Both the position numbers and the translations under genes were made by a program. A stretch of DNA of 64,000 bases from assembly GCA_963741445.1 (NCBI GenBank), contig CAVUIE010000004.1, positions 187,756-251,755 of the forward strand, given 5' to 3'. The notes under the pieces were generated by a model that saw only the letters and a program-made list of their open reading frames with translations, did not search any database and was not told the origin of the DNA. Positions 15,923-61,725 of the stretch are shown here, in pieces (position 1 is the first letter of the stretch; each line of letters opens with the position of its first letter). Source of the DNA: an uncultured Chloroflexia bacterium (GTDB taxonomy: Bacteria > Chloroflexota > Limnocylindria > Limnocylindrales > CSP1-4).

Positions 15923-16650
15923 TCAGTGCTCGTGCGCCGGCTCGTCCGGGGCGTGGTGGTGCGGCCGCTCGCCGAAGATCGCGCGACCGACCCGGACGAT
16001 CGTGGCGCCCTCCTCGATCGCGAGCTCGAAGTCGTCGGACATGCCCATCGACAGCTCCGGTCCGAGCGCCGGCCAGCGGGAGCGCAGCCCCTCCCCCAGC
16101 ACGCGCAGGCCGGTGAAGGTCGCCCGCGCGTCGGCCGGATCGGTCGCCAGCCGCCCGACCGTCATCAGGCCGCGGACCTCGAGGTTCGGCAGCGTCGAGC
16201 AGCGCCGGCAGCGCCGCCTCGACGGCGTCGGGCGCGAAGCCGGCCTTCGCCGGGTCGGCGTCGACGTTGACCTGGACCAGCACGGGGTAGCGGGCACCCG
16301 GCCGGACCTCGGCGGCCAGCCGGTCGAGGCGCTCGCCGAGCGCGACCGAGTCCACCGTCTGGATCGCGTCGAAGACCTCGAGCGCGCGCCGCGCCTTGTT
16401 CGACTGCAGCGGGCCGACGAGCTGCCACGACGCGCCCGGGCACCTCGGGCGCCTTCGCCTCGCCCTCCTGGACGCGGTTCTCGCCGAGCATCGTCGAGCC
16501 CGGCCGCGACCGCGGCCCGCAGCCGGGCGGCGTCCACGGTCTTGGAGACGGCGATCAGGGTCACGTCGGCCGGGTCGCGCCCGGCCCGCGCGCAGGCGTC
16601 GGCGATGCGCTCGAGGACGCGCGCTCGCGCGCTGGGCCAGGTGCGTCGAT
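15923..16650 (-). CDS. yggS: PLP-homeostasis protein YggS/YlmE (alanine-racemase-fold PLP-binding), with several frameshifts.
   Basis: Fragments lie in three frames. They include '[28 protein letters not shown]', 'GENRVQE' and '[23 protein letters not shown]...[28 protein letters not shown]'. Confidence 0.7.
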
Positions 16651-16684
16651 CTGGTCGTGATCCGGTGGCGTCACCACCGGCGGC

Positions 16685-17920
16685 TACTTCCGGCGGAGGA
16701 AGCTGGGGATCTCCAGGTCGTCCGCGTCGTAGGTCGGGGCGCGCTTGACGGGCGCCGGCTCGCCGACCGACCGCTCGGAGCGGGTCGCCGCGACCGCGGC
16801 GACCTCCGGCTCGTGGCCGGTGCCCGCGCCGCCGTCGATGGCGCCGTCGAGGATCTCGTCGCGCTGGCGCTGGAGCTCCTCGAGGAAGTCGCGCTCGCGC
16901 GGCTGGCGCGATCGATGCCGACGTGTCCATGACCCCGGTCGCCTCGCGGGCGCTCGTGTGGCGCTTGCGGCCGCCGTCGAAGCCGGTCGCGATGACCGTG
17001 ACCATGACCTCCTCGCCCAGCCGCTCGTTGAAGCTGGTGCCGAAGATGATGTTGGCCTCCGGGTCGGCGGCCTCCTTGATCGCCTCGGCGGCCTCCTGGA
17101 CCTCGAAGAGCGACAGGTTCGCGGAGCCGGTGATGTTCCAGAGGATGCCCTGGGCGCCGTTGATGTCGAGCTCGAGGAGCGGGCTGGCGATGGCCATCCG
17201 CGCGGCCTCGACGGCGCGGTTCTCGCCGCTCGCCCGGCCGATGCCCATGAGCGCGGAGCCCGCGTCCTTCATGATCGCGCGGACGTCGGCGAAGTCCTGG
17301 TTGATGAGCCCGGGCACCGTGATGATGTCGCTGATGCCCTGGACGCCCTGGCGCAGCACGTCGTCGACGACGCGGAAGGCGTCGAGGATGCTGGTGTTCT
17401 TCTGGACGACGTCCTTGAGCCGGTCGTTGGGGATCGTGATCAGCGCGTCGACCTGGCTCTTGAGCTCCTCGGCCGCCTTCTCGGCGACGAGCTTGCGCTT
17501 GTTGCCCTCGAACGCGAACGGCTTGGTGACGACGCCGATGGTGAGCGCGCCGCCCTCCTTGGCGATCTGCGCGACGACCGGCGCGGCCCCGGAACCGGTC
17601 CCACCGCCGAGCCCCGCGGTGATGAAGACCATGTCCGAATCGGCGAGCGCCTGGGCGATCTTCTCGGAGTCCTCCTCGGCCGACCGCTGCCCGATCGACG
17701 AGTCGCCGCCGGCGCCGAGCCCGCGGGTGACCTTGTCGCCGATGCGGATCTTGTGCGGCGCGTCGGACTGGAGGAGCGCCTGCGAATCCGTGTTGCAGGC
17801 GATGAACTCGACGCCCATCATCTCGGCGCGGATCATCCGGTTGACGGCGTTGCTCCCGCCACCCCCGACCCCGATGACGCGGATCAGCGCGAAGTTCTCG
17901 GAGTCGGAGCGCAACGTCAT
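16685..17920 (-). CDS. ftsZ: Cell division GTPase FtsZ, with at least one frameshift near 16900.
   Basis: The N-terminus and tubulin signature read '[29 protein letters not shown]...[15 protein letters not shown]'. The true C-terminus '...[12 protein letters not shown]' is in another frame. Confidence 0.9.
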
Positions 17921-18137
17921 CGGTCATCCTCCAGACGCCCCTCGGCAGGCGTCGATGCGTCGGTCGGCCGGACCCTGATGACTCCTGGGGCAGAGCCGGG
18001 GTCCTGTGGATAAGCCCGGAGTATAGCGCCGACCCCGCGGATGCCGACAAGCCTCCTTCGAGCGTCCCGGACGCCGGGAGGCGAGGCTCCGGTGCGGCCC
18101 GGCACCGCCGGGCGCGGCGTGGCCCGGCCGGCCCGCC

Positions 18138-58137: not shown

Positions 58138-59690
<1,553 letters not shown>

Positions 59691-59707
59691 ATCCGCTCCC
59701 GTCTGGC

Positions 59708-59723
59708 GTCTTTGCGCAAGGAC
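59708..59723. promoter_or_regulatory. Palindrome copy 2: GTCTTTGcgCAAgGAC, about 18 bp upstream of the pccB start.
   Basis: The motif is seen directly in the sequence. Confidence 0.5.
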
Positions 59724-59765
59724 AGTGGCCATCATACCGGCGCGCGAGTGACCGATCCGGGTCGA

Positions 59766-59844
59766 GTTCTCCACATCGCGGATATCCACAGATTCGGTGA
59801 ACAACTCCGCGATGCTGTGGATAACCCGGGTCGCGTTAGCCACA
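59766..59844. promoter_or_regulatory. Cluster of four DnaA-box-like 9-mers in a GC-poorer stretch upstream of parA. It may be a DnaA-regulated par promoter or an origin-proximal element.
   Basis: TTCTCCACA lies at 59766-74 and ATATCCACA at 59782-90. TGTGGATAA at 59815-23 is the reverse complement of TTATCCACA, a perfect consensus. TTAGCCACA lies at 59836-44. Confidence 0.5.
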
Positions 59845-59929
59845 CGAAGGGCGTAGAGTTGCGCCCCACGCTTCCCCGTCCCCGCCGATGCGGGATGCCA
59901 AACGGACGACGATTCGAGGTGATGCCCCG

Positions 59930-60702
59930 GTGACGAACGTGATCGCGATCGCGAACCAGAAGGGCGGCGTCGGCAAGACGACCACCGCGATCAACCTCGC
60001 CGGTGCGCTTGCCGAAGAGGGCCATCGCGTCCTGTGCATCGACATGGATCCGCAGGCGAACCTGACGGCGGGTCTCGGCATCAACCTCAACACCGTCGAG
60101 CGCTCGATGGCGGATGTGCTCGCGGATGGACGGGCCACCCTGGAGGACGTGATCCTTCCGACCGAGATCGCCGGCATCGACGTCGCGCCGGCGCACATCG
60201 ACCTCGCGTCGACGGAGGGCGAGCTGTTCACGGCGCTCGGTCGCGAGCAGATCCTGCGCGAGGCGCTCGAGGGTCACGTGAGCGACGTACGAGTACGTGC
60301 TGATCGACTGCCCGCCCAACCTCGGCCTGCTGACGGTCAACGGGCTCGTCGCGGCGAACGGGGTGATCATCCCGGTCCAGACGCAGTACTACGCGATGAA
60401 GGGGCTCAACAACCTGGTGAAGGTCATCAACCTGATCCGGGTCAAGCTCAACCGCGACCTGCGGATCCTCGGCCTGCTGCCGACCTTCTTCGACGGCCGG
60501 ACCAACCTCGCGCGCGACATGCTCGACGAGCTGCGCGTCGTCGGCGACCACCACGTCTTCAACAGCATCGTGCGCAACACCGTCAAGCTCGGTGAGGCGC
60601 CGCTGGTCGGACGCCCCATCACGTCGTACGCCACCACGAGCGATGCCGCCCGCACCTATCGCGAGCTGGCACGGGAGGTGATCGACCTTGTCCCGGCCTG
60701 AT
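59930..60702 (+). CDS. parA: Chromosome partitioning ATPase ParA/Soj, with a single-base insertion near 60285.
   Basis: A GTG start sits behind a GAGGTGA RBS. '[46 protein letters not shown]' is the deviant Walker A. Then '[40 protein letters not shown]...' continues in the +1 frame. Confidence 0.85.
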
Positions 60703-61725
60703 TTCCGAGCCGCGGCCGCGCGGCGACTGTCCGAGGATCGCGAGCTCTCCCCCGCCATCGTCAGCCTGCTCGGCTCCGACGGGCCGGTCCGGTCGGTCGG
60801 CGTGCGCATCGTCGCCATCGATCGCATCGAGCCGAACCCCGAGCAGCCGCGTCTCGCGTTCGACCAGGCGACACTCGACGAGCTGGCCGCCTCCATCCGC
60901 GAGCATGGCGTCCTCCAGCCGATCCTCGTCCGCCCGCTCGACGGCACGCGCTTCCAGCTGATCGCCGGCGAGCGCCGCTGGCGCGCGTCGCGTCTCGCCG
61001 GGCTCGACACCATCCCGGCGCTGATCGAGGAGATCGACGACGACACGGCGCTCGAGATCGCGATCATCGAGAACCTCCAGCGCGAGGACCTCTCGCCGCT
61101 CGACGAAGCGGCGATGTACGACCGCATGGTGCGCGAGCACGGCTACAGCATCCGCAAGCTGGCCGACAAGCTCGGCAAGGACAAGGGCTATCTCGAGAAC
61201 CGCCTTCGCCTGGCCGACGCCCCGCCCGAGGTCCGCGAGCTGGTGTCCTTGCGCAAAGACACGCTCTCGCATGCCTACGAGCTGATGAAGGTCGACGACC
61301 CGCGCAAGCGACGACGGCTGGCCGCGCAGGTCGCCCGCGGCGAGCTGACGCTGGTCAAGCTCCGGGACAAGATCGAGGGCCGTCGCACCCGTCCGGCTCC
61401 CGACGAGCCGGCCGACCGAGCGTCGAGGTCGAGGTCGACTGGCCGGTCGGCCGCCGTCGCGGCCGCCGGCGCCGGCGCCGGCCGGCCCCCGAGGAGGACT
61501 GGTCGCCCGTCGCCCGGCAGCCGATCGGCGAGAACTCGCTGGTCGACGCGAAGCAGCGCCTCGGCGACGCGGTCGAGGAGCTGGTCGACGTCCTCCGCGA
61601 TCCCGACGGTGCGCCACTCGATCCCGGACACCGACCGGGCGAACCTCGCGAAGTACCTGACGATCTCGAAGCTCAAGCTCGAGAACGTGATCGCGATGGT
61701 CCGGAGCGACGAACCGGGCGGCTGA
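60688..61725 (+). CDS. parB: Chromosome partitioning protein ParB/Spo0J. There may be a frameshift in the low-complexity C-terminal third.
   Basis: A TTG start precedes 'IVAIDRIEPNPEQPRLAFDQATLDELAASIREHGVLQPILVRP...FQLIAGERRWRASRLAGLDTIPALIEE'. This includes the ParB box and HTH. Confidence 0.8.
   Translation: MSRPDFRAAAARRLSEDRELSPAIVSLLGSDGPVRSVGVRIVAIDRIEPNPEQPRLAFDQATLDELAASIREHGVLQPILVRPLDGTRFQLIAGERRWRASRLAGLDTIPALIEEIDDDTALEIAIIENLQREDLSPLDEAAMYDRMVREHGYSIRKLADKLGKDKGYLENRLRLADAPPEVRELVSLRKDTLSHAYELMKVDDPRKRRRLAAQVARGELTLVKLRDKIEGRRTRPAPDEPADRASRSRSTGRSAAVAAAGAGAGRPPRRTGRPSPGSRSARTRWSTRSSASATRSRSWSTSSAIPTVRHSIPDTDRANLAKYLTISKLKLENVIAMVRSDEPGG
61245..61260. promoter_or_regulatory. Palindrome copy 3: GTCcTTGcgCAAAGAC, inside the parB coding sequence (candidate parS-like site).
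   Basis: It encodes ...S-L-R-K-D... using the rare codons TTG and AAA in a genome whose codons are about 90% GC3. Confidence 0.5.

Follow-up and report, generated by a model that had tools for sequence, protein, structure and literature searches.

Control of the segregation genes parAB by the replication initiator DnaA is not without precedent. In Pseudomonas aeruginosa, DnaA binds boxes upstream of gidAB-parAB and raises both the transcription of these genes and the level of ParB (PMC13438810). The boxes in Pseudomonas lie at least 130 bp upstream of the -35 element, in an origin-like region beside dnaA and oriC, and gidA is the first gene. Cell division is reportedly tied to the initiator as well, Hottes et al. 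being said to have described ftsZ as a DnaA target in Caulobacter in 2005. The Caulobacter centromere is itself bound by DnaA, according to the account of Mera et al. 2014 given in PMC6399470. The boxes there lie in the parS region, downstream of parB. The locus that we describe here, the parAB locus of the chloroflexotal class Limnocylindria, resembles both systems. As at the gidAB-parAB promoter p1 and oriCII of P. aeruginosa, a cluster of DnaA boxes stands upstream of the parA-parB promoter and would link the initiator to segregation; as in Caulobacter, boxes are found at segregation and division genes or sites rather than at an origin, and those that we found before ftsZ in a sister clade parallel the ftsZ target. 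The boxes differ from those of Caulobacter, however, in being placed in the parA promoter, with no parS nearby, and what is new with respect to P. aeruginosa is that they abut the core promoter, that parA comes first, with no gidAB, and that the whole lies outside the dnaA/oriC neighbourhood, with no dnaA nearby.

The DARS elements of E. coli regenerate ATP-DnaA by releasing ADP. The core of DARS1 (taken from NC_000913.3) reads TTATCCACT-ATTCC-TGTGGATAA-CCA-TGTGTATTA, and the opposite boxes I and II, with their 5-bp spacer, are held responsible for a head-to-head contact of DnaA and for ADP release (PMC6868365). Small groups of boxes are also known from B. subtilis, as clusters outside oriC (PMC3245932), and from E. 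coli, where DnaA in vivo prefers a tandem "double box" with 2-3 bp spacing (PMC11317965); both are bound cooperatively and serve gene regulation or DnaA titration. The present locus shares with them the small promoter cluster of at least two boxes, but unlike the double boxes it has a convergent pair and a tandem box at 11 bp. soj-spo0J itself is not known to be a target of the B. subtilis clusters.

The window, by which we mean the whole 64-kb stretch of DNA that was analysed, from an uncultured member of the Limnocylindria, contains seven matches to the DnaA box TTATCCACA with at most one mismatch, where shuffled versions of it gave 0.96 +/- 1.03 and none of 100 attained seven; perfect TTATCCACA sites number two, against 0.00 expected. 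Four of the seven are packed into 78 bp upstream of parA, and the cluster is therefore not a matter of chance. An initial annotation, made from the sequence alone, had picked out these four 9-mers, and all of them are in place (59767 +, 59782 +, 59816 - and 59836 +), including the reverse perfect box, an exact TTATCCACA at 59816-59824 (-) that is read from TGTGGATAA. DnaA boxes are 9-mers that agree with TTATCCACA or with the looser TT[A/T/G]TnCACA. There is also a fifth one, overlooked in the annotation and as well conserved as the two central boxes. The stretch, which reads ...GTTCTCCACATCGCGGATATCCACAGATTCGGTGAACAACTCCGCGATGCTGTGGATAACCCGGGTCGCGTTAGCCACACG..., thus holds five boxes, of which three are conserved throughout the class: the right core box (R) is perfect, the left core box (L) and the two outer boxes have one mismatch each, and the newly recognised middle box (M) is of the relaxed form TTnTnCAC. 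Of the four annotated boxes, only L and R belong to the conserved core. The sequence around them, described as unusually A/T-rich, does have a lower GC content, 58% over 100 bp as against about 72% in the window, but the enrichment is mild. The cluster lies, as the annotation had it, between pccB and parA, in a gap of 245 bp that separates the GTG start of pccB (59684, -) from that of parA (59930, +). In window coordinates, the features are:

58141 to 59684, minus strand: pccB, carboxyltransferase, divergent from parA, with several frameshifts
59708 to 59723, no strand: palindrome GTCTTTGCGCAAGGAC, invariant in five of five close relatives and outside the DnaA module
59731 to 59736, minus strand: candidate pccB -10 element TATGAT; about half of the loci share CCATCATA
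59767 to 59775, plus strand: outer box 1, TTCTCCACA, one mismatch to the consensus, lineage-specific
59782 to 59790, plus strand: left core box L, ATATCCACA, one mismatch, at position 1
59796 to 59804, minus strand: middle core box M, TTGTTCACC (GGTGAACAA on the plus strand), fitting the relaxed TTnTnCAC
59816 to 59824, minus strand: right core box R, TTATCCACA (TGTGGATAA on the plus strand), a perfect match
59836 to 59844, plus strand: outer box 4, TTAGCCACA, one mismatch, a G at box position 4, lineage-specific
59854 to 59859, plus strand: predicted parA -10 hexamer TAGAGT (class consensus TAGCAT, that is TAnnnT after G)
59916 to 59922, plus strand: GAGGTGA, the parA Shine-Dalgarno sequence, with a conservation of 0.8-0.9 across 77 sequences
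59930 to 60701, plus strand: parA, Soj-type ParA ATPase, with Pfam AAA_31/CbiA matches on both halves
60688 to 61725, plus strand: parB, with ParB_N and HTH_ParB domains and a GERRWRA motif

Comparison with the relatives L001 and L002 reveals that one extra base, at about 60287, interrupts the parA frame, and pccB and several other genes carry multiple frameshifts, with many split open reading frames of high GC3. Since the relatives are long-read MAGs, these interruptions are most likely indels of long-read assembly and not the marks of pseudogenes. Elsewhere the window encodes an oligopeptide ABC transporter, aconitase and further genes of the TCA cycle and the propionate pathway, and the dcw cell-division cluster, from mraZ to ftsA and ftsZ, occupies 16-37 kb.

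A scan with the ParB of the window as query, retaining one genome per species, gave 80 loci, nearly all of them titled Chloroflexota or "Candidatus Limnocylindria/Limnocylindrales", with ParB 62-81% identical to that of the window when matched over its full length, and up to 86% in the best segment found by tblastn; 77 of these loci include DNA upstream of parA. The L-M-R module is present in all 77, while about 1.4 Mb of these loci outside the module yielded just a dozen scattered single boxes. The class consensus is nTATCCACn for L on the plus strand, with an invariant TCCAC core, the near-invariant TTGT[T/G]CACC for M on the minus strand (GGTG[A/C]ACAA on the plus strand) and TT[A/G]TCCACA for R on the minus strand, the last being TTATCCACA in 61 and TTGTCCACA in 17 of 78 sequences. 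In the alignment, the boxes stand out as invariant islands, TCCAC, GTG.A.AA and TGTGGA.AA, separated by freely variable spacers, and the substitutions within the islands fall where known DnaA boxes vary: at positions 1, 2 and 9 and in the alternation between TTATCCACA and TTGTCCACA. The convergent pair L-M is separated by 5 bp in 48 and by 4 bp in 30 of the 78 sequences, and the tandem pair M-R by 11 bp in 75 and 12 bp in three, the window having 5 and 11 bp. Comparison of the synteny of parAB, which the annotation had proposed, found it constant, with mutase-accA-pccB diverging from parA-parB-UbiA-acyltransferase in all loci. Several contigs with a typical Limnocylindria pccB-parAB locus (L020, L033, L077, L007/L035 and L012) were deposited as MAGs of Patescibacteria, Binatia, Methylomirabilota, Anaerolineaceae or Thermomicrobiales and are probably mis-binned or mis-classified.

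The same data bear on the idea that the boxes are a chance product of local AT richness. A spacer of 58% GC does raise the rate of random boxes somewhat, and both outer boxes lack conservation beyond the closest relatives: outer box 1 is confined to the window, L001 and L002, and outer box 4 to the window and L001, L002 having TTAACCACA in its stead and L003 and L004 nothing of the kind. However, shuffles that average 0.96 sites per 64 kb never produced seven, and in 77 of 77 genomes, with a ParB only 62-81% identical, the core stands at the same place, in the same orientation and with conserved spacing. Conservation refutes a chance origin, and we consider the probability of such a coincidence to be practically nil.

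The module is coupled to the parA promoter. In 77 of 78 sequences, R ends 26-31 nt, with a mode of 30, before a TAnnnT hexamer about 70 nt ahead of the parA start codon; the commonest variants of this -10-like element are TAGCAT (45 sequences), TAGGAT (12), TACGAT (9) and TACCAT (9), and the window has TAGAGT. The identification of the hexamer as the parA -10 is a prediction from this conservation and from its likeness to the elements found before ftsZ in the clade. The parA promoter has no discernible -35 hexamer; a simple sigma-70 consensus scan of 59500-60100 returned neither a -35/-10 pair nor a promoter or terminator. The fixed position relative to the -10-like element is what one expects of a DnaA-regulated promoter. 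Towards pccB, in contrast, the distance from L to the -10 on that side varies from 8 to 109 nt, in classes of 8-11, 31-33 and 40-109 nt, and L was rejected as a part of the pccB promoter for want of a conserved distance. With one gap fixed and the other variable, the module therefore travels with the parA promoter. The suggestion in the annotation of a DnaA-regulated par promoter is borne out to the extent that the core occurs in every relative, locked 26-31 nt upstream of the parA -10-like hexamer, and we regard it as likely, judging from sequence conservation, that the three boxes form a DnaA-type cis-element of the parAB promoter.

Our preferred reading, to which we give a probability of roughly 0.68, is that parAB is transcribed from a DnaA-dependent promoter with a built-in three-box module and that DnaA most likely aids RNA polymerase there. 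If transcription begins near 59866, as predicted, the centres of R, M and L fall at about -47, -66 and -80, and putative DnaA protomers would occupy L (+), M (-) and R (-) between about -88 and -43. R would thus sit just upstream of the would-be -35, where the hexamer is missing, and the most likely effect of the bound protein would be to help RNA polymerase to use the parA promoter; the production of ParA and ParB would then track the level or the activity of the replication initiator. We infer three points here: the identity of the bound protein as DnaA, the site at which transcription starts and the sign of regulation. The DnaA of this clade is assumed to share the box specificity that is generally conserved. 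The tandem spacing of M and R, 11 bp, speaks against the reading in so far as it departs from the 2-3 bp of the double box preferred by E. coli DnaA. Activation is probably the correct sign rather than repression, a preference owed only to the position of the boxes and the missing -35. Outer box 4, which falls within the predicted -35/-10 spacer of the parA promoter and hence inside the core promoter, suggests the opposite, repression rather than activation, for the lineage of the window.

Two further elements belong to the pccB side of the spacer. The palindrome GTCTTTGCGCAAGGAC lies at the predicted transcription start of pccB, 8 nt from the candidate -10, and is possibly an operator at which a regulator would control the propionyl-CoA carboxylase operon. 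Outer box 1 is read on the minus strand as TGTGGAGAA. In the window, L001 and L002, 28-30 nt (30 nt in the window) separate its end from the -10 on the pccB side, a gap that mirrors the one between R and the parA -10; this suggests that the lineage of the window recruited DnaA to the divergent pccB promoter, too.

The same geometry recurs at another gene. A metagenome scan with FtsZ as query returned 80 loci, and ten contigs among them, from a sister clade of high-GC Chloroflexota with FtsZ 74-76% identical (L123, L125, L131, L132, L134, L136-L139 and L159; for example, L125 at 2875-2940), have tandem boxes TGTGGA[T/C/A]AA before ftsZ, 22 bp apart from start to start, the proximal of which ends 27-29 nt ahead of a TAGAAT -10. 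The ftsZ -10 elements of the clade, TATACT, TAGACT and TAGAAT, each after a G, are of the type used at parA. When the pattern of a box, a gap of 26-31 nt and TAnnnT was searched for in all of the fetched DNA, some 1.7 Mb, it was found among high-GC Chloroflexota loci at the parA and sister-clade ftsZ promoters only, the two further matches being in two contigs of 38% GC from unrelated organisms; within the window it occurs only at parA. It is mainly because of this recurrence at ftsZ that the module is read as a promoter element, probably an activator site replacing the -35.

In the window itself, the second perfect TTATCCACA, at 18005-18013 (-), also lies before ftsZ, between ftsA and ftsZ. 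A TATACT -10 (TTGTCG-19-TATACT) precedes it by 6 nt, so that it coincides with the predicted start of ftsZ transcription, a repressor-like position. The box proved not to be conserved among more than 40 closer metagenomic relatives. A separate peculiarity of this ftsZ is that its frame (15926-17923, -) stays open into a PLP-binding domain of the YggS type (Ala_racemase_N, residues 572-654), which reflects either a real fusion or an indel joining ftsZ to a downstream ylmE/yggS.

A dense group of boxes including a perfect consensus box speaks for an origin, and the annotation had raised the possibility of oriC or a part of a split origin, with DnaA unwinding the DNA at the cluster. The likeness to the origins of E. 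coli and B. subtilis (PMC8287927) extends to the use of the same 9-mer and to several boxes within less than 100 bp; moreover, bacterial parAB genes are often near the origin, the flanking genes diverge from the site, and P. aeruginosa has its origin-like box cluster, oriCII, right beside gidAB-parAB. The locus departs from oriC in other respects. Only three boxes are conserved, the spacer of about 245 bp accommodates two promoters besides, and a constant distance to a -10 element is characteristic of promoters. No AT-rich unwinding element was found in any of the 78 spacers, the best 13-mers having 8-10 A/T and the best 30-mers 14-19; the AT-rich 13-mers that were to be looked for nearby did not materialise, the maximum in the window being 9 A/T per 13-mer, and the 30-mer stretch richest in A/T is the box cluster itself. 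The orientation of the boxes differs, too. R1 (read as TGTGGATAA) and R4 of E. coli oriC point outward, with the 13-mers beyond R1, whereas here L faces M and R, so that a DnaA filament would grow into an occupied interior of 25 bp. No free DNA lies downstream of the conserved boxes, and since every one of them points into that interior, a box/trio type of unwinding region would find no space, as judged by the criteria for that oriC module (PMC8287927).

The neighbourhood agrees with this. A tblastn search with E. coli DnaA had no match in the window or in the 80 loci, and the Pfam scan of the open reading frames in the window found no dnaN or gidA/B, just as the annotation had said. None of dnaA, dnaN and gid occurs within 10 kb in 77 genomes or in the left-hand 60 kb of the window, and Pfam scans of neighbouring genes found no dnaN, gyrB, recF, rpmH, yidC or mnmE/G nearby. 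The cumulative skew of the window, which represents local data and chiefly follows the gene strand because coding strands are C-rich, has a plateau or maximum at 52-60 kb and no minimum. Pooled GC3 skew came to -0.143 (L+) and -0.096 (L-) on the left and to -0.124 (R+) and -0.082 (R-) on the right, and the strands differ in one direction to the left and to the right alike (L- minus L+ is +0.047 and R- minus R+ is +0.042), unlike the divergence that an origin should produce. This is a weak signal, whose sign in the left flank of the window differs from that in the pooled loci. The local skew thus lacks an origin-type switch, which, coming from local data only, is weak evidence against an origin. 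With no AT-rich element, inward-pointing boxes and no dnaA, dnaN or gid nearby, we consider it very improbable that the cluster is a chromosomal origin or one half of a split origin, and the locus serves as a warning for annotation that a DnaA-box cluster beside parA is insufficient for calling oriC.

One may also ask whether the boxes are boxes for DnaA at all, and not binding sites of another protein, such as a ParB/ParA operator, or arms of a hairpin in DNA or RNA. L and R do make an inverted repeat of 9 bp, and canonical parS (TGTTnCACGTGAAACA, the 16-bp palindrome tGTTnCACGTGAAACa) is absent, both from the window at up to three mismatches and, at up to two, from the surroundings of parAB (within 10 kb) in the 80 genomes, where three mismatches gave only three scattered matches. 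The centromere sites of the clade are either elsewhere or diverged. Against a different binder, the right box most often (in 61 of 78 sequences) agrees exactly with the universal DnaA consensus, and its alternative, TTGTCCACA, is the other classical high-affinity form; three 9-mers of one family, one of them outside the inverted repeat, suit DnaA better than a dimeric operator, and none of the boxes resembles the 16-bp palindrome parS. A hairpin fares no better. The inverted repeat has no compensatory change, the covariation score of L and R being 0.027 as against 0.033 in shuffles, and variation in one arm breaks the pair; a search of the box region against Rfam gave no match, and its fold is unremarkable, with a z-score of only -1.4. 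A hairpin or RNA element was rejected on these three grounds, and from the broken pairs, the missing Rfam match and the unremarkable fold it follows that the boxes behave as independent protein-binding sites. A binder other than DnaA, or a role of the repeat as a hairpin, is in our view improbable.

A last alternative concerns not the protein but what it does when bound. The module could take part in the control of DnaA activity, in the manner of DARS or datA, besides or instead of acting in transcription, and it resembles the cores of DARS1 and DARS2 in E. coli (PMC6868365). The parA module is laid out as ATATCCACA-5 bp-GGTGAACAA-11 bp-TGTGGATAA; both have three boxes, the first two convergent at 5 bp and the third in tandem with the second, and both lie in an intergenic promoter region, which in the case of DARS1 is that of uvrB. 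Boxes I and II are opposed and 5 bp apart in 48 of the 78 sequences, but the spacer between L and M is 4 bp in the other 30, and the counterparts of boxes II and III, although in tandem, are separated by 11-12 bp and not by 3 bp. The strongest box, the consensus one, is outermost here (R), whereas in DARS1 it is in the middle; the strict spacing to the parA -10, a feature in which the module differs from the DARS core, is explained without DARS function, and such function has been demonstrated only for E. coli in the literature covered. That the module is a DnaA-activity control element like DARS or datA, within or overlapping the parA promoter, therefore appears unlikely to us, if less so than a binder other than DnaA, and a DARS-like role is better treated as a lead than as a finding.

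Returning to the proposed DnaA-dependent promoter, its consequences would reach beyond a single locus. Little is known of cell-cycle control in Chloroflexota, and the Limnocylindria have no cultured model. The module offers a defined target of 45 bp for DnaA-binding and reporter work, and it is at the same time a natural test of the function of DARS-type head-to-head boxes outside E. coli. The most far-reaching combination, in which DnaA would be a promoter-proximal activator replacing the -35 contact at parAB across the class and at ftsZ in the sister clade and the parA module would also recycle ADP-DnaA, is a long shot; if true, the Proteobacteria would no longer be alone in having a DARS-like element, and this first one from elsewhere would be in physical linkage with a segregation operon. 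The prediction that arises for these organisms is that the initiator would directly time the machinery of segregation and division, as in Caulobacter and Pseudomonas, but now in a distant phylum.
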